A DNA stretch of 24,833 nucleotides from a virus. The DNA lies in UHGV virus genome UHGV-0067666; one strand, 5' to 3'. Both the position numbers and the translations under genes were made by a program. Under the pieces are notes generated by a model. That model saw nothing but the letters and a program-made list of their open reading frames with translations. It did not search any database and had not been told where the DNA came from. Positions 4,763 through 17,993 of this stretch are shown piece by piece; position 1 is the first letter of the stretch, and each line of letters begins with the position of its first letter.

Positions 4763-4989
4763 TGGCTGATGCAATGGATCTCGTACAGCAGCGCGTTGAA
4801 GAAGAACGCCAGCGCCATATCCGTGCTGCCCGTGCCAAAACACCGGGCGTGTCTCGCGTGCTTTGTATTGAATGTGAAGCGCCAATTCCGCCAGCACGCC
4901 GCCGCGCCATTCTAGGAGTGCAGCTTTGCATTACCTGCCAGGAAATCGCAGAGCTGAAAGGTAAACATTACAACGGAGGTGCTGTATGA
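4762..4989 (+). CDS. TraR/DksA-family C4 zinc-finger protein
   Basis: CIECEAP...(17 aa)...CITCQ pattern (CxxC-x17-CxxC) in a 75-aa protein; translationally coupled to flanking genes. Confidence 0.7.
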   Translation: MADAMDLVQQRVEEERQRHIRAARAKTPGVSRVLCIECEAPIPPARRRAILGVQLCITCQEIAELKGKHYNGGAV

Positions 4990-5843
4990 GCACCATCCTG
5001 AAATGGGCGGGAAATAAAACCGCCATTATGTCCGAACTGAAAAAATACCTTCCTGCTGGCCCGCGACTGGTTGAACCTTTCGCGGGTTCTTGTGCTGTGA
5101 TGATGGCGACGGATTACCCCAGCTATCTGGTTGCGGATATTAATCCTGATTTAATCAACCTCTATAAAAAGATTGCCGCTGATTGCGAAGCGTTTATATC
5201 TCGTGCCAGAGTTTTATTTGAGGAAGCAAACAGTGAGCTGGCTTATTACAACATAAGACAGGAGTTTAATTACTCAACTGAAATTACTGATTTCATGAAG
5301 GCGATATATTTCCTGTATCTCAATCGTCACGGTTACCGTGGTTTATGTCGCTATAACAAGAGCGGGCATTTCAACATTCCCTACGGTAATTATAAAAATC
5401 CGTATTTCCCTGAAAAAGAAATTCGCGCATTTGCAGAGAAAGCCCCGCGGGCAACGTTTATCTGCGCGAGCTTTGATGAAACGCTGGCGATGTTGAAGGC
5501 GCGGGATGTGGTGTATTGCGATCCGCCTTATGACGGTACGTTTTCCGGCTATCACACTGATGGTTTCACTGAAGATGACCAGTATCACCTGGCATCCGTT
5601 CTTGAACATCGAGCATCTGAAGGACATCCGGTCATTGTTTCTAACAGTGACACATCCCTGATCCGTTCGCTGTATCGCAATTTCACTCACCACTACATCA
5701 AGGCAAAACGCAGCATCGGCGTGTCGGCTGGCGAGAGTAAATCTGCAACAGAAATCATTGCTGTTTCCGGGGCGCGCTGCTGGGTGGGATTTGATCCTTC
5801 GCGTGGCGTGGATAGTTCTGCTGTGTACGAGGTGCGTGTATGA
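4986..5843 (+). CDS. dam: DNA adenine methyltransferase, Dam-like (orphan N6-adenine MTase)
   Basis: N-terminal KWAGNK and EPFAGS motifs (AdoMet binding), catalytic DPPY motif; ATGA overlaps with both neighbours. Confidence 0.9.
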
Positions 5844-8260
5844 GTCATGCCGATATGAGCGACTCTAGCGGCTTTAACGAGGCCGCTGCAGCATTTTCAT
5901 GGAACGGCCCGAAAAAGGCCATTAACCCTTATCTGGACCCGGCGGAAGTTGCGCCGGTTTCTGCGCTTTCAAACCTGATCACTCTGTACGCTACCGATAA
6001 CGAGCAGGAACAACTGCGCCGCGAGGCACTGAGTGATCAGGTCTGGGAGCGTTATTTCTTTAATGAATCCCGTGATCCTGTCCAGCGCGAAATGGAGCAG
6101 GATAAGCTCATTAGCCGGGCAAAGTTGGCGCATGAGCAGCAGCGTTTTAACCCGGACATGGTCATTCTGGCAGACGTCAGCGCCCAGCCCTCCCATATCA
6201 GCAAGCCGCTGATGCAACGTATTGAATACTTCAGCAGCCTGGGCAGGCCAAAGGCTTATTCCCGCTATTTACGTGAGACGATTAAGCCATGTCTGGAACG
6301 ACTGGAGCATGTACGCGACAGCCAGCTATCTGCATCTTTTCGTTTTATGGCAAGCCATGTAGGGCTGGACGGCCTGCTGATTCTGCCTGAAATGAGTCAG
6401 GATCAGGTGAAACGCCTGTCTACCCTTGTCGCTGCGCATATGAGCATGTGCCTTGACGCAGCTTGTGGTGATTTGTATGCCACCGATGACGTTAAGCCAG
6501 AAGAAATCCGCAAGACATGGGAAAAGGTGGCAGCGGAAACCCTGCGTCTGGATGTCATCCCGCCTGCGTTTGAGCAACTCCGTCGGAAAAGAAACCGCCG
6601 TAAACCCGTGCCCTATGAACTCATTCCGGGTTCGCTGGCGCGTATGTTGTGCGCCGACTGGTGGTACCGGAAATTATGGAAAATGCGTTGCGAATGGCGG
6701 GAAGAGCAGTTGCGTGCTGTCTGCCTGGTCAGCAAAAAAGCATCTCCCTATGTCAGCTATGAAGCCGTGATGCATAAACGTGAGCAGCGCCGCAAGTCAC
6801 TGGAGTTTTTCCGTTCTCATGAACTGGTGAACGAAGAGGGCGACACGCTGGATATGGAAGACGTGGTAAACGCCAGCAGCAGCAACCCGGCGCACCGCCG
6901 CAATGAGATGATGGCCTGTGTTAAAGGTCTGGAGCTTATCGCGGAAATGCGCGGTGACTGCGCCGTTTTCTACACCATTACCTGTCCGTCACGTTTCCAT
7001 TCTACGCTCAATAACGGCAGACCAAACCCAACCTGGACAAATGCGACGGTAAGACAAAGCAGCGATTATCTGGTCGGCATGTTTGCTGCATTTCGTAAGG
7101 CGATGCACAAAGCCGGGTTGCGCTGGTATGGCGTGCGGGTGGCTGAGCCGCATCATGACGGTACAGTTCACTGGCACCTGTTGTGTTTCATGCGCAAAAA
7201 AGACCGCCGCGCCATTACTGCATTGTTGCGTAAGTTTGCCATCCGTGAAGACCGCGAGGAACTGGGTAATAACACTGGTCCACGCTTTAAATCTGAGCTG
7301 ATAAACCCGCGCAAAGGTACGCCAACAAGCTACATCGCGAAATACATCAGTAAGAACATTGACGGGCGTGGTCTGGCTGGCGAGATCAGCAAGGAAACGG
7401 GTAAATCCCTGCGTGATAACGCTGAATACGTTAATGCCTGGGCGTCTCTGCATCGTGTTCAGCAATTCCGCTTCTTTGGCATTCCGGGGCGTCAGGCTTA
7501 CCGTGAACTGCGATTGCTGGCTGGTCAGGCGGCAAGGCAGCAGGGTGACAAAAAAGTAGGTGCGCCGGTACTGGATAACCCGCGCCTTGATGCAATCCTG
7601 GCTGCTGCTGATGCTGGTTGTTTTGCCACCTACATCATGAAGCAGGGCGGCGTACTGGTTCCCCGCAAATATCACCTCATCAGAACTGCTTATGAAATCA
7701 ACGAAGAGCCGACCGCCTATGGCGATCACGGTATTCGTATTTATGGCATCTGGTCACCCATTGCAGAGGGCAAGATCTGCACTCATGCGGTGAAGTGGAA
7801 AATGGTTCGTAAGGCCGTTGACGTTCAGGAGGCGGCAGCCGACCAGGGCGCTTGCGCCCCTTGGACTCGGACTCGTGGCAATAACTGTCCCCTTGCTGAA
7901 AATTTGAACCAACAAGGGAAAGACAAATCAGCTGATGGGGATACCAGAACGGATATCACCCGCATGGATGACAAGGAGTTGCACGATTACCTGCACAGTA
8001 TGAGCAAAAAAGAGCGCCGGGAACTGGCAGCAAGATTACGCCTGGTTAAACCGAAACGGCGTAAAGACTACAAACAGCGAATTACAGAGTATCAGCGTCA
8101 GCAGCTCGTCTATGAACTGAAGTCCAGAGGATTTGATGGCAGCGAGAAAGAGGTCGATTTGCTCCTTCGCGGTGGCAGTATTCCGTCAGGAGCAGGCCTG
8201 CGTATCTTCTATCGGAACCAGCGTTTGCAGGAAGATGATAAGTGGCGGAACCTGTATTAA
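5840..8260 (+). CDS. A: Replication initiation protein A (rolling-circle nicking endonuclease, P2 gpA family)
   Basis: 806 aa; HWHLL metal-binding motif and YIAKYISKN tyrosine motif typical of P2 A-type initiators; position after early operon. Confidence 0.9.
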
Positions 8261-8413: not shown

Positions 8414-8602
8414 ATGCAGGACTATTTTTTGGAGTCTTTGAAGCTCCAGCGCATTGATTTTTTTCTTAAGCTTGTAGCGGCTAGTGAGTGTAGTGATGAA
8501 GAGAAGGGGCTGGCTTTGCAGTGGGTTTCTGAACTAACAGATGAACTCATGGCAAAAATCAGAACCCACGAATACAACCGCTCAATGGATGTCATCAGTT
8601 GA
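8414..8602 (+). CDS. Small LexA-controlled protein (62 aa), candidate antirepressor (Tum-position gene)
   Basis: ATG at 8414 with AGGAGGA RBS; the longer TTG-initiated ORF 8312..8602 would include the promoter and LexA box. Confidence 0.5.
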   Translation: MQDYFLESLKLQRIDFFLKLVAASECSDEEKGLALQWVSELTDELMAKIRTHEYNRSMDVIS

Positions 8603-8612
8603 GGTGACTTTT

Positions 8613-8846
8613 ATGCGCATTGAAATAATGATCGATAAAGAGCAGAAGATTAGCCAGTCTACCCTGGACGCCCTTGAATCCGAGCTTTACCGTAATCTGC
8701 GCCCCCTGTATCCCAAAACGGTAATTCGTATCCGCAAAGGTAGCTCTAACGGTGTGGAACTGACCGGACTGCAACTGGACGAAGAAAGGAAGCAAGTGAT
8801 GAAAATTATGCAGAAGGTGTGGGAAGACGACAGCTGGCTGCATTAA
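8613..8846 (+). CDS. dinI: DinI-family protein (DNA-damage-inducible protein I homologue)
   Basis: 77 aa beginning MRIEIMIDKEQ with conserved DALESEL and C-terminal acidic W-containing tail, closely paralleling E. coli DinI (MRIEVTIAK...DALAGEL...WESADDWF); GAGG RBS. Confidence 0.8.
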   Translation: MRIEIMIDKEQKISQSTLDALESELYRNLRPLYPKTVIRIRKGSSNGVELTGLQLDEERKQVMKIMQKVWEDDSWLH

Positions 8847-8918
8847 GAAACGTTGCTGGCGTCTGAACTTGCTTCTGGCGTCAGCAAGGTTGAACAACGA
8901 GCTGTGCGAGGCGTTAGT

Positions 8919-8933
8919 TGATATAGTATCAAT
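8919..8933. promoter_or_regulatory. Perfect palindrome TTGATA-tag-TATCAA upstream of HNH gene; candidate operator or promoter element
   Basis: Seen directly, ~35 bp upstream of the ATG at 8969. Confidence 0.3.
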
Positions 8934-8968
8934 ATATAAAAGGTTTCTCGAAGTTTTAAGGTAAGGTT

Positions 8969-9688
8969 ATGACAACTATTAACAAGCATGGGTTATCTAG
9001 AACAATTCCTGAACCTGTAAAACTGGAGGTAAGGCAGCGCTGTGGCTTTGGTTGCGTTGTTTGTGCTTCTCCCATTGTTGAGTATGAGCATGTAATTCCC
9101 ACATACGCTGATGCAAAGGAGCACTCTCCAAATGCAATAGCACTACTTTGTCCTACGTGCCATGCGAAAGTAACGAAACGTCTTTACTCTAAAGAGAAAA
9201 TAATTAAAGCAATGGAATCTCCTGCAGCCTTACAAAAAGGGAATGTGGCCGATATATTGGACTTTTCTGATAGGCATCCAACAATAATATTTGGTGGTGC
9301 GACGTTTGAATCCTGTACTGTACCAATAATGTTTCAAAATGAGCCATTGTTAACCATTGAAAAAGAAAATAATGCTTTTCTTATTTCGGGTAAATTTTAC
9401 GATAGTCAAGGTATTGTTAATCTTGAATTAATTAAGAATGAGTGGGTTTGTAGTGCAAGGCATTGGGATGTTCAGGTTGTTGGTCCTAGAATAACTATTA
9501 TAGAAAAAAGGAAAGGTCCTCGTTTAATTATTAAAGTTGATGCGCCTGAAAGATTGATTGTGGAAAGATTAGATATGTTGGTTAAGGGGACTCGGATTGT
9601 AGGAGACGAACACAAGCTAAGAGTAGGTCCACATCAATTTCACAATTGTGGAGTTTCAAATTGCAATATTGGTTTCTGCTTTGGCTAA
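8969..9688 (+). CDS. HNH-endonuclease domain protein with uncharacterised C-terminal domain (~150 aa)
   Basis: N-terminal CGFGCVVC...EYEHVIP...NAIALLCPTCHAK, a CxxC...EH...N...CxxCH HNH signature; AT-rich codon usage unlike the neighbouring backbone. Confidence 0.7.
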   Translation: MTTINKHGLSRTIPEPVKLEVRQRCGFGCVVCASPIVEYEHVIPTYADAKEHSPNAIALLCPTCHAKVTKRLYSKEKIIKAMESPAALQKGNVADILDFSDRHPTIIFGGATFESCTVPIMFQNEPLLTIEKENNAFLISGKFYDSQGIVNLELIKNEWVCSARHWDVQVVGPRITIIEKRKGPRLIIKVDAPERLIVERLDMLVKGTRIVGDEHKLRVGPHQFHNCGVSNCNIGFCFG

Positions 9689-9801
9689 CTGGAGGTTGGA
9701 AAAAGACCATTTCCTGTAAGCTGAGTATTTCGTACATTTTTGCCAACGCATGTCTATGCCGCATGAAATCGCATGATCGTTTGAGGATCGTTTTTGCTGA
9801 T

Positions 9802-9829
9802 GCCCGCCAGAGCTGGCGGGCTTTTGCTT
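9802..9829 (+). terminator. Rho-independent terminator (GCCCGCCAG / CTGGCGGGC stem followed by TTTTGCTT)
   Basis: 9-bp GC-rich inverted repeat plus T-run seen directly, downstream of the HNH gene. Confidence 0.6.
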
Positions 9830-9870
9830 ATGTCATGCAGGTGCATGAAAACCACTACACAAAGCGGGCA

Positions 9871-9889
9871 GGCGTGGCGGGGATACGAG
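9871..9889. other. Candidate cos site (cohesive-end sequence) GGCGTGGCGGGGATACGAG
   Basis: From memory, P2/186 cohesive ends are 19-nt G-rich sequences beginning GGCG(A/T)GGCGGGGA; first 13 nt match that recollection; orientation relative to the portal gene matches P2. Confidence 0.35.
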
Positions 9890-9991
9890 CGCGCGCTAAC
9901 TCATAAATCCTAGATTATTAGTGGATTTATCTCATTGAAATGTGCACTATTCCCAGCATTGAGTTGTACCAGATGTCTTTATGGAGGGACT

Positions 9992-11758
9992 GTGGCTTTT
10001 GTAACTGATATTCGGCTTGAAGATAATGCTATTGCTGCACCTGCGACAGCACAGGTTATGGCTCAGAGGCTAGGATCTGTATTACGTAAGAGATATGAAG
10101 AATTCATCCATAAAAGAGAGTGTGCACCAGGCCAAGCAGACTATGATGTAAAAATGGCTAGCAGGGCTTTAGCTGCATTCACTATGTATCAGTTAGGATG
10201 TGTGGATGATAAGTATGCAGGGGAGTCTGTATGTGATAGTAGTGAAGATGGTGGTATAGATGGAATAGCAATCAACCATAACGAAAAAATCGTTGTTGTT
10301 GTTCAATCAAAATTTCACCAATCGGGAAACGGCACTTGGACAAGAGCCGATTTTATGTGTTTTAAGGATGCTTGTGAGAAGCTACAAAGTGAAAGATACG
10401 AATTATTTGATTCCATATTGCAAAATAAAAGCGGGGAAATAAGTGCGGCTTTAAGTAGTTTTGAATACAAGTTCATCTTTGCGATGGCGCATACAGGTAA
10501 AAAAGGTGCTGCAGAGGAAATATTAAATGATATGCGGGAATGGCAATATCAATTAAACGCTGCAGCTTTTACACCTGAGGATGAGCCTAAAGAGAACTGG
10601 GGATTTCAGGTTCATTTAATATCCTCTGAAGATATGATGCATTGGTTACAGAATGGCTCTCGAAATCAAATTGATCTTAACAGGGTTGAAATTGAGCGTT
10701 TTGGATTTTTGAATGAACCATATCAAGCTTTTTACGGGGCTATTAGTGGTGATCAAGTTGCAGAATGGTGGGAAGAGCATGGTGCTCGATTATTTACAAA
10801 AAACATAAGGAATATGCTTGGTAAAACAGAAGTGAATGAGGAAATAAAAAAGACAGCTATAGATAATCCTGATATGTTTTGGTTTTATAATAATGGGATT
10901 ACTGTACTGGTTAAGGAAGTTGTTCCTCATAGACGAAACGCAGCTCCTAATATAGAGAGAGGGATTTTTGATTTTCGTGATGTAAGTGTCATTAATGGTG
11001 CACAAACAGTCAGTAGTATTGGCGCATGTAAAGATGCGCTTGGTGAAAACATATATAGACTCAAAGTGCCAGCTAGATTCATTGTTATAGATGATGATAC
11101 TGATAATTTAACTGCAAATGCAATTACAAAAGCTAACAATTTCCAAAATAGAGTATTGGGAAGAGATTTTGCATCGCAGCAGGCAGATCAACATAGATTG
11201 GCAAGGGAGTTAGTGCTTGAAGGATATCAATATCAGTTACTAAGAACAGATGAAGATCATTCACAGACAAATACGAAAGTCATTGACTTGGATGAGGCGC
11301 TCAATGCACTCGCATGTTTAAGTAAAAATAATACGGTTGTATCGACACTAAAATCAAATCGCGGTAGGTTTTTTGAAAATTTTGAAGGCTCTCTATATAA
11401 AACTATTTTCAATCCAAGATTAAGTGGTTTAAAACTTATCAATACTGTTCTACATTTTAGAGTTATAGATAAGTTGATCGGTAAAACATTACTATCAGTA
11501 GATAAAACGACCCATAGTCGCAAGCATTTAATTATTACGCATGGTAATAGATACTATGCGTCTGTACTATTGAGCAACGTTTCTGGGATACATAATAGCT
11601 CAGAAATTCTTGTTCCAGATGAAAAAAATCTTTCCGAAGAATTAAGTGCATTAATTCAACGTGCTGAAGAGTACATTGAAGATAATTACCCGAATGCCTA
11701 TCCGGCAAGATTTTTTGCAAATCCAACGAAAATACAAGAGTTATACGATAATGTTTAA
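9992..11758 (+). CDS. AIPR-like (abortive infection phage resistance family) protein with N-terminal PD-(D/E)xK-like nuclease motif
   Basis: ORF 9935..11758 (TTG); likely start GTG 9992 behind GGAGGG, or ATG 10058; motif DGGIDGIAINHNEKIVVVVQSKF resembles a D...(E/Q)xK nuclease core; later NGITVL and INGAQT motifs recalled as AIPR-typical; AT-rich. Confidence 0.65.
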   Translation: MAFVTDIRLEDNAIAAPATAQVMAQRLGSVLRKRYEEFIHKRECAPGQADYDVKMASRALAAFTMYQLGCVDDKYAGESVCDSSEDGGIDGIAINHNEKIVVVVQSKFHQSGNGTWTRADFMCFKDACEKLQSERYELFDSILQNKSGEISAALSSFEYKFIFAMAHTGKKGAAEEILNDMREWQYQLNAAAFTPEDEPKENWGFQVHLISSEDMMHWLQNGSRNQIDLNRVEIERFGFLNEPYQAFYGAISGDQVAEWWEEHGARLFTKNIRNMLGKTEVNEEIKKTAIDNPDMFWFYNNGITVLVKEVVPHRRNAAPNIERGIFDFRDVSVINGAQTVSSIGACKDALGENIYRLKVPARFIVIDDDTDNLTANAITKANNFQNRVLGRDFASQQADQHRLARELVLEGYQYQLLRTDEDHSQTNTKVIDLDEALNALACLSKNNTVVSTLKSNRGRFFENFEGSLYKTIFNPRLSGLKLINTVLHFRVIDKLIGKTLLSVDKTTHSRKHLIITHGNRYYASVLLSNVSGIHNSSEILVPDEKNLSEELSALIQRAEEYIEDNYPNAYPARFFANPTKIQELYDNV

Positions 11759-11761
11759 ACT

Positions 11762-11788
11762 AAAGGGAGGTTGCCTCCCTTTTTTTTA
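11762..11788 (+). terminator. Rho-independent terminator (AAAGGGAGG-ttg-CCTCCC + T8)
   Basis: 6-bp GC stem, 3-nt loop, run of 8 T, immediately after the stop of the AIPR-like gene and abutting the 3' end of the convergent portal gene. Confidence 0.75.
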
Positions 11789-11789
11789 A

Positions 11790-12818
11790 TTAGAAATGGT
11801 ATTCTTGGAATTCAATAACACCTTCTTCTATGAAATTGTTTATTTCTTGTAATCTTTTTTGCAATGGCAATAATTCATTACGTACAAATACTTTACTCGC
11901 CTTCTCTACATCTCCAAAGCCCCCAACATTATTAGGCATTATCCCCATCATTTGCGGCGGCACACGGTGTGCCGCCATCATGTCGTCCCGACTCACGTTC
12001 TTGATATTCAGAAACTCATCCTTCGCCGCGACTTCTGACAACGGGATAATCTGAAGCCCGTCCTTTTTGCCGTTAGGAGAGTACATAAACAGGTTGCGGA
12101 AGTTGCCTGGCCCTTTGGCGCTTTTCATTGCGTTGCGGAGGTTGTTCACATCTTCTTGGTTCTGCGCGGCATCGGTCATGTACATGATGAAACCTGCATG
12201 GCTGCCGTTGATGTAATACTTACGGCGGAACAGTGTGGCGGACTCGTTGAGCAGGGCTGACGGGATGGCAGAAAGATAACCTGGCAGGCCGTAGATCTCC
12301 TGGTTGATGTCCGGTTCCATCAGATGAAAAATGCTGCCTTTCGTGAACTGATACGGCTGGGCTGTCATACCGTATTGCACAAACCAGTAGGTATCCAGGT
12401 CTAATCCGCGTCGGGTGTATTTTGCCAAAGCTGGCTCAAGGGCGATAACTTCACCAAAGCGGTTCGTGCGTTTCTCCAGGTAGGCGTTACCAAATACCAG
12501 ATAGTCCTGCACAAAACGCGAAAAAGCCTGCTGGCTAAGCAGCGGATGAGGGATATAGGTACTGGTCAGAATGTTGCACTTTACTGCAATCGGGGAACTG
12601 TGATGCACGGCGGCGCGGAAGGTGCGCGCCAGTCCATTAAAGCTGACGGGCGGCTCATACCAGCGATCCATCTGTACGCATTCCACATAGTCCAGCAGTT
12701 CGCGGCGGTCCAGCACGGGGATGGGATCACCAAAGCTGAAAGCCTCAGCCGTTGGGCCGTTGCTTGGTTTTGTGTCGTGATCAACTGTTACCTGCTTGGT
12801 GTTTTTACGTTTGCTCAT
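11790..12818 (-). CDS. Q: Portal protein (P2 gpQ family)
   Basis: 342 aa, size and position as P2 Q, immediately downstream of terminase-region genes on minus strand; start ATG overlaps stop of upstream ORF (ATGA). Confidence 0.8.
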   Translation of the reverse strand: MSKRKNTKQVTVDHDTKPSNGPTAEAFSFGDPIPVLDRRELLDYVECVQMDRWYEPPVSFNGLARTFRAAVHHSSPIAVKCNILTSTYIPHPLLSQQAFSRFVQDYLVFGNAYLEKRTNRFGEVIALEPALAKYTRRGLDLDTYWFVQYGMTAQPYQFTKGSIFHLMEPDINQEIYGLPGYLSAIPSALLNESATLFRRKYYINGSHAGFIMYMTDAAQNQEDVNNLRNAMKSAKGPGNFRNLFMYSPNGKKDGLQIIPLSEVAAKDEFLNIKNVSRDDMMAAHRVPPQMMGIMPNNVGGFGDVEKASKVFVRNELLPLQKRLQEINNFIEEGVIEFQEYHF

Positions 12819-13522
12819 TCTGCCAGTTCCTTGCTAGCGAGAGGCCATTCGCACATAAACAGCATTTTCCAGTCCTCTTCTGATAATTCTTTTTTCATAT
12901 CGTTCAGCCAGTTATCAGTAAACAACATTGCTCCAGATGCTGCTGCGTCATCTGCGGTGAACACCATGCTGGTTACGCTGTTGTTTCTGCATAGCTTTTT
13001 ATATTCCTGCCGTGCCTCTGGGTTAGGGCTGGGAGTGGTGTAGTAGGTGGCGTGGTAGTGTGCGTGCATAGAAATCCCTTTAGCGATGGCAATCATATTT
13101 CTCGGTGATTCACTCCAGGCATACTCTGACACGTAAACATTTCCACTGAGTGCGGAGGTGAGACTGCTGAGGTCGGTAAAATAAATTACTGCACCATTCG
13201 GAAGCTCCAGATGACTTTTGCCTGATTTTATTTTTCCAGTGTGCGTATAAGCTGCGGCCTGGCTTAAGAATGCTGATACACAGGCTTTGATTGCCTGCGC
13301 AGATGCTGTGCTGCAGCAGAGGAAAATCTGGTTACGCCCGGTATGCAGTGCATCGTTCAGGGCTTCATAGGAAAAAAAGAAATCCGCGCCTGCCTGGCGC
13401 ATTTTTGTGAGTACACGGTTTCTACTCTTTGGGCCAGTGTTCCACTCATACTGGTAAGCAAAGAAAAAGCTATCCACCGGAAGTCCCGCGATAGTCATGA
13501 GGTTAGTTGGGATTGGGGGCAT
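12815..13522 (-). CDS. Terminase large-subunit ATPase-domain paralogue (235 aa), extra gene between P and Q
   Basis: Aligns to the central region of the adjacent 588-aa terminase (e.g. FFFSYEALNDALHTGRNQIFLCCSTAS vs FYFAREALIDALLTGRNQIFLSASKAQ; GNVYVSEYAW vs GNLYLDEYFW; YYTTPS vs YFSTPS); GGAG RBS; start overlaps P stop (TGATG) and stop overlaps Q start (ATGA). Confidence 0.7.
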   Translation of the reverse strand: MPPIPTNLMTIAGLPVDSFFFAYQYEWNTGPKSRNRVLTKMRQAGADFFFSYEALNDALHTGRNQIFLCCSTASAQAIKACVSAFLSQAAAYTHTGKIKSGKSHLELPNGAVIYFTDLSSLTSALSGNVYVSEYAWSESPRNMIAIAKGISMHAHYHATYYTTPSPNPEARQEYKKLCRNNSVTSMVFTADDAAASGAMLFTDNWLNDMKKELSEEDWKMLFMCEWPLASKELAE

Positions 13523-15288
13523 CAAAAAATCTCCACAATATTGCTGGTATTGGCGGATTCGCCCTGCAGCGGTTCGTTAAACAGTGCGTGCATCGTTGCC
13601 CAGGCCAGATCGGCGTGGCTGGCTTCTTCGCTGCGGCTGGCTTCATAGGTTGGGCGGTTGCCGCTCGCGGTGGTGGCGCGACGGATTGCCATGAATGACT
13701 GCGCTATGTCGGTGTGTCCGGCGTCAAACTCCAGACGGCGGTGGCTGATAATGTCGTAGGCCTTGAGTACCAGGGCGTTTTTAACATTGGGGTTATAGAC
13801 AAACTCCCGGACGGCTGGAAAAAACGCTTTCACGTTCTCGTAAACCCCGTGGCCGACACCTGTCGAGTCGATGCCGATGTAGGTCACGTTGTACTGCTCG
13901 GTCAGTTTTTTGATGGCGTCAGCCTGGGCGCGGAAGTCCATCCCACGCCACTGGTGACGCTCAAGAATGCGGAACTTACCACCAGGCACGGCTGGCGGTG
14001 CCACCACTACGCATCCGGCGCTGTCGCCGTTTTGCGTACCTTTTGCCGGGTCATAACCGATCCACACTTCGCGCCAGCCAAACGGGCGCAGAGCCAGTGC
14101 ATGAAAGTCGGTCCAGACTTCCCAGCTGTCCACCATGCACGCCTGCAGCTCGCTGAGCGGGAACACGGACGCGAGATCGTCCACAAACTCGCACATCAGC
14201 AGGTTCTGGTATTCGTCCGGGCTGTACTCCATGCGCAACTGGTCAAGGTCGAACAGGTTACAGCCGCCGCGCACCGCATCTTCCACGGTGACTATCTGGC
14301 GGTATTGCCCGTCTGCGCACAGCAGGCCGGGGGCCAGATTGCTGTGGGACAGGTCGATGTCCACCTTGTCGGCCTTGTTGCGCCCACGGTTGAACAGCGC
14401 ACCGGACCAGAACGGATAAGCACTGTGTGTCAGGCTGGATGGCGTGGAAAAATAGGTTTGTCGCCATTTTTTGTGAATAGCCATACCGGAAGCCACTTTG
14501 CGCAGCTCCTGGAATTTCGGTATCCAGAAATATTCATCCAGATACAGGTTGCCGTGATAACTCTGGGCCGTGCGGGCATTGGTGCCGAGGAAGTAAAGCG
14601 TGGCTCCGTTAGGAAGCACCATCGGATCGCCTTTCAGCTCCACCTCGACTTCTTTGGCGAAGTCTATGATGTACTGCTTAAAGACGTGAGCCTGTGCCTT
14701 ACTGGCAGAAAGGAAAATCTGGTTACGTCCGGTAAGCAGGGCGTCAATCAGGGCTTCACGGGCAAAGTAAAAGGTCGCGCCGATCTGGCGTGACTTCAGC
14801 AGGTTGCGGATGCGGTTGGTTTTTCCGGCTTCCCACCAGTGGCGCTGGTAGTTGAACATGGAGGAATGGAAAATTTCTTCCAGCTTCTCAATCTGTTCAT
14901 CGGTGAAAACATTCTTTTCCGGCTGACGGCGCGGGCCTTTGTTGCGGTTGGCGACGTTAGGGTTTAAGTCGGCTTCGTTACCGCCATTGTTAAACTTGCC
15001 GATCCGCGCGTGGCGCTCCGACTGGCGCGCCAGCAGGTCAATTTCTTTGAAATCTTTCCCTTCTTTGTGCTCCTTCATAATGAGCTGGCAGTAGCGTGCG
15101 GCGGTGGTGAGCTGCATCTGATCCAGCGGCCCATAGTCACCCCACTTGTCGCGTTTTTTCCAGCTGTGAACGGTTGCAACTTTCTCGCCCAGCATTTCAG
15201 CAATGCGGGCTACGCGGTATCCCTGAAAGTACAGCAGCATGGCCTGCCGACGGGGATCGAGATCTGCGGGTGTCAGTGTGGTGTTCAT
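13522..15288 (-). CDS. P: Terminase large subunit (ATPase/nuclease, P2 gpP family)
   Basis: 588 aa, size as P2 P; ATPase-like core with hhhhDE motif LYLDEY; divergent from the scaffold operon as in P2. Confidence 0.9.
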   Translation of the reverse strand: MNTTLTPADLDPRRQAMLLYFQGYRVARIAEMLGEKVATVHSWKKRDKWGDYGPLDQMQLTTAARYCQLIMKEHKEGKDFKEIDLLARQSERHARIGKFNNGGNEADLNPNVANRNKGPRRQPEKNVFTDEQIEKLEEIFHSSMFNYQRHWWEAGKTNRIRNLLKSRQIGATFYFAREALIDALLTGRNQIFLSASKAQAHVFKQYIIDFAKEVEVELKGDPMVLPNGATLYFLGTNARTAQSYHGNLYLDEYFWIPKFQELRKVASGMAIHKKWRQTYFSTPSSLTHSAYPFWSGALFNRGRNKADKVDIDLSHSNLAPGLLCADGQYRQIVTVEDAVRGGCNLFDLDQLRMEYSPDEYQNLLMCEFVDDLASVFPLSELQACMVDSWEVWTDFHALALRPFGWREVWIGYDPAKGTQNGDSAGCVVVAPPAVPGGKFRILERHQWRGMDFRAQADAIKKLTEQYNVTYIGIDSTGVGHGVYENVKAFFPAVREFVYNPNVKNALVLKAYDIISHRRLEFDAGHTDIAQSFMAIRRATTASGNRPTYEASRSEEASHADLAWATMHALFNEPLQGESANTSNIVEIF

Positions 15289-15430: not shown

Positions 15431-16264
15431 ATGACAGTGAAAGCAAAGCGTTTTCGCATCGGGGTGGAAGGTGCCACCACCGACGGACGCGAAATCCAGC
15501 GTGAATGGCTGGAACAGATGGCAGCCAGCTACAACCCGGCGGTGTATACCGCGCTGATTAACCTTGAGCACATCAAGTCTTATCTGCCGGACAGCACCTT
15601 TAACCGCTACGGCAAGGTGACGGCGCTGTTTGCTGAAGAAATCACGGAAGGTCCGCTGGCAGGCAAGATGGCGCTGTATGCCGACGTTGAGCCAACGGAG
15701 TCCCTGGTGGAACTGGTGAAAAAAGGCCAGAAATTATTCACCTCTATGGAAGTCAGCCCGAAGTTCGCTGATACGGGCAAAGCCTACCTGGTCGGCCTGG
15801 CTGCCACTGATGACCCTGCCAGTCTGGGCACTGAAATGCTGACATTCAGCGCCAGTGCAGCCCATAACCCGCTGGCAAACCGCAAGCAGAATCCTGCCAA
15901 TCTCTTTACCGCTGCAGAGGAAACGGTGATCGAACTGGAAGAAATCCAGGATGACAAACCGTCCCTGTTTGCCCGTGTCACGGCGCTGTTCACCAAAAAA
16001 GAGCAGTCCGATGACGCCCGGTTCTCTGATGTGCATAAGGCCGTGGAGCTGGTCGCCACTGAGCAGCAGAACCTGAGCGCACGCACCGAAAAATCCCTGT
16101 CTGAGCAGGAAGAACGTCTGTCTGAGCTGGAGACTGCCCTGCAGGCACAGCAGACCGCCTTTAACGAACTGGTGAATAAGCTGAGTCATGAAGACAGCCG
16201 CCAGGACTACCGCCAGCGTGCAACAGGCGGTAACGCCCCCGCTGACACTCTGACCAATTGCTGA
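15431..16264 (+). CDS. O: Capsid scaffolding protein (P2 gpO family)
   Basis: 277 aa; conserved FRIGVEG...INLEH...TSME...AYLVGLAATDDPASLGTE segments as recalled from P2 gpO; GGAG RBS. Confidence 0.85.
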   Translation: MTVKAKRFRIGVEGATTDGREIQREWLEQMAASYNPAVYTALINLEHIKSYLPDSTFNRYGKVTALFAEEITEGPLAGKMALYADVEPTESLVELVKKGQKLFTSMEVSPKFADTGKAYLVGLAATDDPASLGTEMLTFSASAAHNPLANRKQNPANLFTAAEETVIELEEIQDDKPSLFARVTALFTKKEQSDDARFSDVHKAVELVATEQQNLSARTEKSLSEQEERLSELETALQAQQTAFNELVNKLSHEDSRQDYRQRATGGNAPADTLTNC

Positions 16265-16280
16265 TGGAGCACAAAACCTG

Positions 16281-17339
16281 ATGAAGAAGAATACCCGCTT
16301 TGCTTTTAACGCTTACCTGCAGCAGCTGGCGCGTCTGAACGGTGTGGCAGTTGAAGAACTGTCCAGCAAGTTCACCGTGGAGCCGTCTGTGCAGCAGACG
16401 CTGGAAGACCAGATCCAGCAATCCGCCGCTTTCCTGACGCTGATTAACGTCACGCCAGTGACCGAGCAGTCTGGTCAGCTGCTGGGGCTGGGTGTTGGCA
16501 GCACCATTGCCGGAACCACTGATACCACCGCAAAAGAGCGTGAGCCTGTCGATCCGACGCTGATGGTCGATGTGGAATACAAATGCGAGCAGACCAACTT
16601 TGACACGGTGCTGACCTACGCGAAGCTGGACCTGTGGGCGAAGTTTCAGGATTTCCAGGTGCGTATTCGTGACGCGATCGTGAAACGTCAGGCACTGGAC
16701 CGCATCATGATCGGCTTTAACGGCGTGAAGCGTGCGAAAACCTCAAACCGTAGCGAAAACCCGCTGCTGCAGGATGTGAATAAAGGCTGGCTGCAGAAAA
16801 TCCGTGAAGATGCACCGGATCACGTCATGGGCAGCACCACCACGGGCGGTGAAACCACACCGGGTGCGGTGAAAGTCGGGAAAGGTGGCGAATATGCCAA
16901 CCTGGACGCCGTGGTGATGGATGCCGTCAATGAGCTTATCGACGTGGTCTACCAGGACGATGACGATCTGGTGGTGATTTGCGGTCGTGAACTGTTGTCT
17001 GACAAGTATTTCCCACTGGTCAACAAAGAGCAGGAAAACAGTGAAAAACTGGCTGCCGATATGATCATCAGTCAGAAACGCATGGGTGGCCTGCAGGCGG
17101 TGCGTGCGCCGTTCTTCCCGCCGAATGCGCTGCTGATCACCCGTCTGGATAACCTGTCCATCTACTGGCAGGAAGATACCCGCCGCCGTTCAGTTATCGA
17201 CAACCCGAAACGTGACCGGATTGAAAATTTTGAATCCGTTAACGAAGCCTATGTGGTTGAGGACTACCGCTGCGCCGCACTGGTGGAAAACATCCAGATT
17301 GGCGATTTCAGCGCCGCTGCAGCAGAAACCGGAGCGTAA
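16281..17339 (+). CDS. N: Major capsid protein (P2 gpN family)
   Basis: 352 aa; strong resemblance to recalled P2 gpN (TRFAFNAYL...FTVEPSV...GFNGVKRA...VGKGG.YA.LDA). Confidence 0.9.
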   Translation: MKKNTRFAFNAYLQQLARLNGVAVEELSSKFTVEPSVQQTLEDQIQQSAAFLTLINVTPVTEQSGQLLGLGVGSTIAGTTDTTAKEREPVDPTLMVDVEYKCEQTNFDTVLTYAKLDLWAKFQDFQVRIRDAIVKRQALDRIMIGFNGVKRAKTSNRSENPLLQDVNKGWLQKIREDAPDHVMGSTTTGGETTPGAVKVGKGGEYANLDAVVMDAVNELIDVVYQDDDDLVVICGRELLSDKYFPLVNKEQENSEKLAADMIISQKRMGGLQAVRAPFFPPNALLITRLDNLSIYWQEDTRRRSVIDNPKRDRIENFESVNEAYVVEDYRCAALVENIQIGDFSAAAAETGA

Positions 17340-17342
17340 TCC

Positions 17343-17993
17343 ATGAGCCTGAGTCCCGCACGGCAGCATCGCCTGCGCGTTCAGGCTGAACAGGCCGCCC
17401 GCGAGGGCGGCAGTGTTCGCCACGCATCGGGCTATGACCTGATGCTGCTGCAACTGGCGGAAGACCGCTGCCGTCTCAAGGGCGTTCAGTCCACGGTCAA
17501 AAAAGCGGAAATCAAGGTGGAGCTGCTGCCGAAGTACGCCGCCTGGGCAGAGGGTGTCCTGGCTGCCGGAGGCGCTCAACAGGATGACGTGCTGATGTAC
17601 GTGATGCTGTGGCGCATTGATGCCGGAGATTATGCCGGAGCGCTGGAGATCGGGCGTCATGCCCTGCGTCATGGCTGGGTGATGCCGCTGGGTAACCGCA
17701 ACGTGCAGACCGTGCTGGCAGAGGAAATGGCAGACGCCGCGCAGAGCGCAATGCTTGCCGCCACCGGCTTTGATGCCGATCTGTTGCTGCAGACGCTGGA
17801 GCTGACAGACGGTCTGGATATGCCGGACCAGTCACGGGCGCGTCTGCATAAAGCGATTGGCGCTGTCCTGAGTGAAAGCAATCCGGCGTCCGCCCTTAAT
17901 CATCTCAACCATGCGTTACAGCTCGATCCCCGCTGTGGCGTGAAAAAAGACAAACAGCAGCTGGAGCGCAGACTGCGCAATGACAGCCGCTGA
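17343..17993 (+). CDS. M: Terminase small (endonuclease) subunit, P2 gpM family
   Basis: 216 aa directly after capsid gene, position as P2 M. Confidence 0.75.
   Translation: MSLSPARQHRLRVQAEQAAREGGSVRHASGYDLMLLQLAEDRCRLKGVQSTVKKAEIKVELLPKYAAWAEGVLAAGGAQQDDVLMYVMLWRIDAGDYAGALEIGRHALRHGWVMPLGNRNVQTVLAEEMADAAQSAMLAATGFDADLLLQTLELTDGLDMPDQSRARLHKAIGAVLSESNPASALNHLNHALQLDPRCGVKKDKQQLERRLRNDSR

Follow-up and report, generated by a model that had tools for sequence, protein, structure and literature searches.

The window, by which we mean the whole stretch of 24,833 nucleotides analysed from the virus genome UHGV-0067666, carries a short GC-rich island between the replication gene A and DinI-like genes on one side and an oppositely oriented portal gene on the other (Table 1). 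Gene order in the window is that of P2 and 186 after joining of their ends, and the same order was found in 117 loci with the same cos among the matches listed. The portal protein is 84% identical to gpQ of SEN8 and 62% identical to its counterparts in P2 and 186. The gpP homologue, the terminase large subunit, combines a gpP-type N-terminal domain, an ATPase and an RNaseH-like nuclease domain, and is 99.7% identical to the SEN8 protein and 64% identical to those of P2 and 186. The corresponding values for the small subunit, the gpM homologue, are 94.9% and 48%; both subunits are full length in the window.

An extra ORF of 236 aa (12815-13525, – strand) with a match to Terminase_6N, an ATPase domain, lies between the portal and terminase large-subunit genes. 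Its product is 37% identical to the gpP homologue of the window and 34% identical to the product of an ORF at the same place in 186. The ORF is absent in SEN8, Fels-2 and P2, and a homologue with at least 70% identity was seen in ~6 same-cos loci among the matches listed. The backbone also contains a Dam-type adenine methylase gene (4986-5843) and the DinI/Tum-like gene at 8541-8846. Notes in the Fels-2 and SopEPhi records compare the Dam and DinI genes of these phages to retron Ec67, and the backbone of the window resembles that type.

Table 1. Features of the window around the predicted cohesive end, in order of position
Feature	Position	Strand	Basis
Replication gene A	5840-8260	+	
DinI-like gene	8541-8846	+	
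Right-end cargo: HNH-domain gene, just before the cos block	8969..9688	+	Pfam HNH, E = 2.4e-5
Conserved cos block, 151 bp	9746..9896	+	Conservation across 162 loci and limits of BLAST matches
GCATG direct repeats (three), candidate terminase recognition (cosB-like) elements	9748, 9761, 9771 (9748..9775)	+	
Predicted intrinsic terminator hairpin and T-run	9802..9826 (stem-loop 9802-9821)	+	Terminator scan, folding
Equivalent of the 55-bp P2/P4/186 core: TGCATGAAAACC...AAAGCGGGCA, 19-mer, CGCGCGC	9842..9896	+	Gapless alignment
Half-site GCGGGCA, 5' of predicted top-strand nick 9870/9871	9864..9870	+	
Predicted 19-nt 5' cohesive end, GGCGTGGCGGGGATACGAG	9871-9889	+	Left end of virion DNA, by homology
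Mirror half-site CGCGCGC, predicted bottom-strand nick 9889/9890; last conserved cos bases	9890..9896	+	
Left-end cargo: AIPR-family / AbiU-like gene	9992..11758	+	Pfam AIPR, E = 7e-35; PADLOC AbiU, E = 7e-25
Bidirectional hairpin terminator between AIPR-like gene and portal gene	11762..11790	.	Terminator scan
Portal gene (gpQ homologue)	11790..12818	-	Pfam Phage_portal
Terminase large subunit (gpP homologue)	13522..15288	-	Pfam Terminase_5, Terminase_6N, Terminase_6C
Scaffold gene	15431-16264	+	
Capsid gene	16281-17339	+	
Terminase small subunit (gpM homologue)	17343..17993	+	

A P2-type cohesive end is predicted in the GC-rich island

The initial annotation had described 9802-9900 as a GC-rich island with a terminator and a cos-like, G-rich 19-mer, and this description held up. 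GC content is 61.6% in 9802-9900 and reaches 82% in 9864-9896, with 37% in the upstream flank (9400-9745) and 40% in the downstream flank (9897-10300). The 19-mer GGCGTGGCGGGGATACGAG was found on the + strand at exactly the position proposed. It is present as a single copy in the 24.8-kb window when up to three mismatches are allowed, with 0 expected (100 shuffles).

Comparison with annotated phage ends placed the 19-mer among the cohesive ends of the P2 family. The P2 record gives cosL at 1-19 as GGCGAGGCGGGGAAAGCAC, and the 186 record gives cos at 1-19 as GGCGTGGCGGGGAAAGCAT, with the top-strand cut annotated at its 5' end and the bottom-strand cut at its 3' end. The first 13 nt of the 19-mer are all identical to the 186 end, as had been noted in the initial annotation; over the full length, 15 of the 19 positions agree with 186, and 14 of 19 agree with P2 and likewise with P4. 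The mismatches to P2 and 186 are concentrated in the last 6 positions. The putative cos annotated in SEN8 is identical to the 19-mer (19/19), and the SEN8 genome announcement gives its cos site, on the basis of annotation, as ggcgtggcggggatacgag, the same as in the window. The last base of the SEN8 record is the equivalent of 9870 and its first bases are the 19-mer. Similarly, the record of Erwinia phage EtG terminates at the aligned position 9870 and opens with a 186-type 19-mer annotated as identical to the cohesive end of a bacteriophage. The 19-mer followed by CGCGCGC is also present in Fels-2, SopEPhi, vB_EcoM-813R9, Cartapus (whose record labels its cos 'putative') and vB_YpM_MLG42, and in these five phages unrelated sequence begins directly after CGCGCGC. 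The published literature that we found on the 19-mer consists of annotation-level statements, with no experimental mapping of virion ends.

The similarity extends beyond the 19-mer, since both of its flanks also align to the cos regions of P2 and 186, and to that of P4 as well. Orientation agrees too: with the 19-mer on the + strand the portal gene lies downstream on the – strand, as it does in P2 and 186 and as had been asserted for P2. Virion ends at 11700-11800, near the portal gene, had been named as an outcome that would speak against this location. No cos-like sequence was found there; 11680-11860 is AT-rich and holds only a hairpin, and a search of 11700-11800 for a second candidate returned neither a match to the 19-mer (up to three mismatches) nor a match to its 13-mer core (up to two mismatches). 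In the rest of the window, too, the less stringent 13-mer scan turned up no cos-like sequence.

The conserved block extends to 7 bp beyond the predicted overhang

A sensitive BLAST search with 9690-9940 against 50,697 phage records yielded matches in about 100 P2-like phages. The matches, in phages and in E. coli genomes, open at ~9747/9748 and close at 9895-9909. Across 162 loci with the exact 19-mer, among the matches listed, column conservation was ~0.75-1.0 in 9746-9896 and 0.3-0.5 outside, which is the noise level; at 9897 it was down to ~0.5 among these matches. Of the block delimited in this way, 125 bp lie to the right-end side of the predicted top-strand nick; the overhang takes up the next 19 nt, and a further 7 bp follow it. 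All 19 overhang positions are conserved in the clade to the same extent as the flanks.

The 125-nt right-arm part contains four copies of GCATG on the + strand and one on the – strand, compared to 0.27 expected from the window-wide frequency, an ~18-fold enrichment. These repeats align with the TGCAT repeats in the cos regions of 186, P2 and P4, and their positions are kept. We consider them candidate sites for terminase binding. Toward the overhang, the equivalent of a 55-bp core common to P2, P4 and 186 (Ziermann and Calendar 1990, as reported in papers that cite it) is identical to the core of P2 at 41 of 55 positions, of 186 at 43 of 55 and of P4 at 44 of 55. When the window was aligned together with SEN8, 186, P2 and the satellite P4, the elements common to them proved to be the three upstream (T)GCAT(G) repeats, the TCATGCAGGTGCATGAAAACC element, the motif AAAACC...AAGCGGGC, AAAGCGGGCA just before the overhang and GCGCGC just after it. 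In all five, homology stops 7 nt past the overhang.

The sequence contexts of the two predicted nicks form a partial dyad, GCGGGCA^ on the top strand and GCGCGCG^ on the bottom strand, and the pattern GCGSGCR^ also occurs in P2, 186 and P4. CGCGCGC is exact in 119 of 147 same-cos loci among the matches listed. The presence of a mirror half-site for the second nick would account for the conservation of exactly 7 bases beyond the overhang.

Predicted terminator hairpins lie upstream of cos and before the portal gene

The terminator that had been noticed in the island is an 8-pair hairpin with seven G-C pairs at 9802-9821, followed by TTTTGCTT. Its predicted folding energy is -20.1 kcal/mol (z = -4.1 relative to shuffled sequences), and its stem, which is mostly invariant, is kept paired in 88-108 of the 109 distinct sequences compared. 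The hairpin aligns with one located just upstream of the 186 cos, at the annotated terminator t95b. It is present in the window, SEN8, 186 and P4 and absent in P2, where the gene beside cos is old, transcribed away from cos. Because P2 does without it, the hairpin is probably not a packaging signal. We read it as a terminator that would end rightward transcription of the DinI and HNH genes and so insulate cos. A terminator at this place should also block read-through into the AIPR-like gene. A sigma-70 promoter scan of 9897-9991, between cos and the start of the AIPR-like gene, found nothing.

The second hairpin, at the other end of the AIPR-like gene, has folding energies of -15.3 kcal/mol on one strand and -14.5 kcal/mol on the other, and its position is that of the annotated terminators tQ of P2 and tW of 186. 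Homology of other same-cos loci to the window begins only at ~11836-11857, inside the 3' end of the portal gene (11790-11857), whose final 15-22 codons are AT-rich and cargo-like. The recombination junction of the left slot seems to lie within the portal C-terminus and not at the terminator.

Different cargo genes adjoin the two sides of the predicted cos

If cos is at 9871-9889, the AIPR-like gene had been expected to sit at the extreme left end of the virion DNA. It does begin ~120 nt from the predicted left end, and with the left end at 9871 it would be the first gene of the virion chromosome. Its longest ORF starts from TTG at 9935; the GTG at 9992, which follows GGAGGGA, is the RefSeq start of E. 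coli homologues with 99% identity (1767 bp, labelled 'AIPR family protein') and is the likely start of the gene. We regard the AIPR-like gene as putative defence-type cargo, by family assignment (Pfam AIPR, PADLOC AbiU). Cargo at this end is usual: in 103 of 117 same-cos loci (~88%) among the matches listed, cos and the portal gene are separated by 500 bp of cargo or more.

On the right-end side, the HNH gene was found in only 2 same-cos loci among the matches listed. In HK97-like phages, HNH proteins assist cos cleavage, and we considered this role for the HNH gene of the window. It was rejected in view of the occurrence of the gene in just these two of the listed same-cos loci and of the nuclease domain that gpP itself has; as variable cargo, the HNH gene probably has no part in packaging.

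The two cargo genes also occur apart from one another. At least 12 of 5,426 complete E. coli genomes carry the cos block, the AIPR gene and the portal gene at 98-99% identity with other right-hand cargo, for example DarT/macro-domain genes, and other E. coli genomes carry the HNH gene and the cos block at up to 100% identity with different left-hand cargo. The pairing of HNH with AIPR was found in none of the 5,426 complete E. coli genomes, and of 1260 matching records, none spans 80% or more of 8900-11900.

The 19-mer occurs in many loci whose flanks assort almost freely

Searches for the exact 19-mer gave 54 species-representative genomes and at least 120 IMG/VR viral contigs; more than 140 P2-like loci carry it besides Fels-2, SopEPhi and Cartapus. 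The genomes belong mostly to Enterobacterales, with Chitinimonas and Pasteurella in addition. The portal gene lies downstream of cos on the – strand in 117 loci among the matches listed, at a distance of 157-3535 bp (median 1568). The ~1.9 kb in the window is typical of this range, and the short cos-portal spacing of P2 and 186 is seen in only 14 of these 117 listed loci. Homologues of psu, sid, delta and alpha, as in P4-like satellites, were not found in the same-cos loci among the matches listed, which gave integrase-like matches only.

Four occurrences of the 19-mer, in unrelated metagenome-assembled genomes assigned to Hydrogenedentota, Christensenella, Anaerolineae and Geobacter, are without any cos flank. 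By our own arithmetic, ~4 chance matches to a 19-mer are expected in 596 Gb when both strands are counted, the same number as that of the flankless matches.

In the betaproteobacterial Chitinimonas sp. BJB300 (loci L017, L018, L022, L023 and L047) and C. taiwanensis (L026, L050 and L061), the 19-mer is present on several contigs each. Two Chitinimonas contigs were read, and they have cos-like flanks, gcaggtgcatgaaa...gaagtgcgca, followed by the 19-mer and then by cgcgcgc; the 19-mer is followed by CGCGCGC in L018, L026, L047 and L050 also. These contigs point to more than one P2-like element or satellite sharing this cohesive end in a distant host.

Outside the block, sequences diverge sharply. 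When the 300 bp beyond each block edge were clustered, the matches listed gave 89 unrelated downstream clusters (138 loci) and 54 unrelated upstream clusters (143 loci). Conservation of the block between flanks as diverse as these points to selection on the cos block itself. The combination of flanks is close to free assortment: 53 upstream and 88 downstream clusters occur in 123 combinations among 133 of the listed loci, and the largest upstream cluster (23 loci) is paired with 18 different downstream cargoes among these matches.

Identity of the block and alternative readings

Taken together, homology, position, orientation, the pattern of conservation and a matching terminase identify 9746-9896, very probably, as the cos packaging site of a Fels-2/SEN8-type P2-like prophage. 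The median gpP identity among the same-cos loci is 96.6% for the matches listed. Since the window and SEN8 have near-identical terminases as well as an identical cos, cos type and terminase go together, as one would expect of a functional site. From the sequence we infer protein binding, the exact nick positions and the packaging competence of the cos in the window.

We weighed whether the cos is a relic, no longer used, in a defective prophage that is unable to be induced or assembled. The window spans only ~25 kb of the element, and some E. coli relatives with the same AIPR module are degraded; in strain E423 there are a truncated portal gene, an IS fragment and deleted head genes. No such decay is seen in the window, where gene A and the genes for the portal, both terminase subunits, the scaffold and the capsid are all full-length, with 84-99.7% identity to isolated SEN8, and where the block follows the clade consensus without any disruptive change. 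A relic cos is unlikely on this evidence.

A second reading accepts the cos region as genuine and places the nicks off the P2/186 positions, with a shorter or shifted overhang, for example one made of the end of the 19-mer and GCGCGC. We hold this to be very unlikely. In the window as in P2, 186 and P4, the partial dyad GCGSGCR^ coincides exactly with the P2/186 nick positions, the whole 19-mer and its flanks are evenly conserved in the clade among the matches listed, and the SEN8 and EtG records open at the 19-nt boundary. In addition, the ends of P2 and 186 were chemically determined, according to the annotations of their records and references cited in the literature. Shifted nicks would fit the observation that the last 6 positions of the 19-mer are those that differ most between the window and P2/186. 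They would also fit Serratia phage vB_SspM_BZS1, for which a 12-nt 5' overhang, GCATTGCGCGCC, was obtained from PhageTerm and end sequencing (PMC7556043), so that the nicks in relatives may sometimes fall elsewhere than in P2. GCATTGCGCGCC consists of the last 4 nt of the 186-type 19-mer and the following TGCGCGCC, and straddles the left edge of the 186-type cos; either vB_SspM_BZS1 is cut at other sites, or its ends were called with an offset.

That the block mainly encodes a small protein or a small RNA, or serves in regulation, is scarcely credible: an ORF of 86 aa (9646-9906) does overlap it, and the records of MLG42 and several Klebsiella phages annotate hypothetical proteins there, but the upstream part of this ORF (9646-9745) is not conserved elsewhere among the matches listed, the block aligns to the cos of P2, 186 and P4, of which the satellite P4 has only the cos region in common with P2, and the sole strong structure is the terminator hairpin, an Rfam search of 9500-10100 having returned no family at E <= 1.

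Proposed packaging mechanism

For the cos packaging site at 9746-9896, the following sequence of events is proposed by homology to P2 and 186. The terminase, with gpM as the small and gpP as the large subunit, would recognise the circular genome through the GCATG repeats of the right arm and the TGCATGAAAACC...AAAGCGGGCA part of the core. The nuclease of the terminase would then introduce two staggered nicks at the partially symmetric site, after GCGGGCA on the top strand and after GCGCGCG on the bottom strand, with the top-strand cut predicted between 9870 and 9871 and the bottom-strand cut between 9889 and 9890. The product would be linear virion DNA whose 5' ends overhang by 19 nt, with 5'-GGCGTGGCGGGGATACGAG at the left.

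The site would include only 7 bp past the overhang, and the stretch from 9897 to the portal gene would be exchangeable cargo. P4 is packaged by the P2 terminase. As P4 is unlike P2 beyond +7, no specific sequence further to the left should be needed, and cargo can adjoin cos so closely for this reason.

Cargo exchange and practical implications

In loci with this type of cos, the 151-bp cos block divides the hotspot into two cargo slots that assort nearly independently. The near-identical 19-mer, flanks and terminase in more than 140 mosaic phages raise the possibility that cos itself is the exchange point, the left and right arms of different co-resident P2-like genomes being re-paired when their identical cohesive ends anneal and are ligated, or through recombination in the block. 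We consider this rather unlikely and put it forward tentatively; if true, exchange at cos would explain the near-free assortment of both cargo slots. The free assortment and the sharp boundaries at -125 and +7 fit joining of cos ends and homologous recombination in the block and the portal gene alike.

For annotation, a cos at 9871-9889 sets the virion ends, with the AIPR/AbiU-like gene first on the left arm and the HNH gene last on the right. The cargo slots of the known hotspot are delimited to the base, at 9745/9746 and 9896/9897, and the sharp boundary at +7, which P2 and P4 also have, is of practical use for building cosmids or exchanging cargo in Fels-2-type phages. The current understanding of packaging in the P2 family is unchanged.

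Comparison with known systems

The closest relatives of the window at cos are the phages of the SEN8/Fels-2 group (Felsduovirus / Elveevirus: Fels-2, SopEPhi, RE-2010 and Cartapus), in which the 19-mer and CGCGCGC are identical to those of the window and the upstream 125 bp are ~90% identical. Their cos, too, has the accessory genes of the DinI side on one flank and, past intervening cargo, the portal gene on the other. The cargo itself differs, that of the window being the HNH gene on the right-end side and the AIPR/AbiU-like gene on the left-end side, and unlike SEN8 and Fels-2 the window has the extra Terminase_6N-like ORF between portal and terminase.

Phage 186 (Eganvirus) has 15/19 overhang and 43/55 core positions in common with the window, and it resembles the window also in the upstream hairpin, the TGCAT repeats, the orientation of cos to the portal gene and the extra ORF between portal and terminase. 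It differs in the last 6 nt of the overhang (AAAGCAT vs ATACGAG) and in the interval from cos to portal, which in 186 is only ~145 bp of non-coding sequence with tW and no cargo. P2 and P4 are like the window at 14/19 overhang and 41-44/55 core positions, in the end of homology at +7 and in the same partial dyad at the nicks. In contrast to the window, P2 is without the hairpin upstream of cos, carries cargo (old, tin) only on the right-end side and has ~140 bp from cos to tQ.

Variable accessory and defence genes near cos, between gene A and the portal gene Q, are a feature that the window has in common with P2-like phages at large, the cos-proximal region between gpA and gpQ being a defence hotspot of these phages (Rousset et al. 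2022, PMC9122126). In 186-related prophages, retrons occupy the interval from cos to the terminator that follows the portal gene, foreign DNA having taken the place of that stretch (Dodd and Egan 1996, cited for this hotspot in PMC5694545). The cos site and the cargo position of the window are correct as first proposed and are already described in the literature; they are not new. The division of this hotspot by cos into two separately assorting slots is what the present comparison adds.
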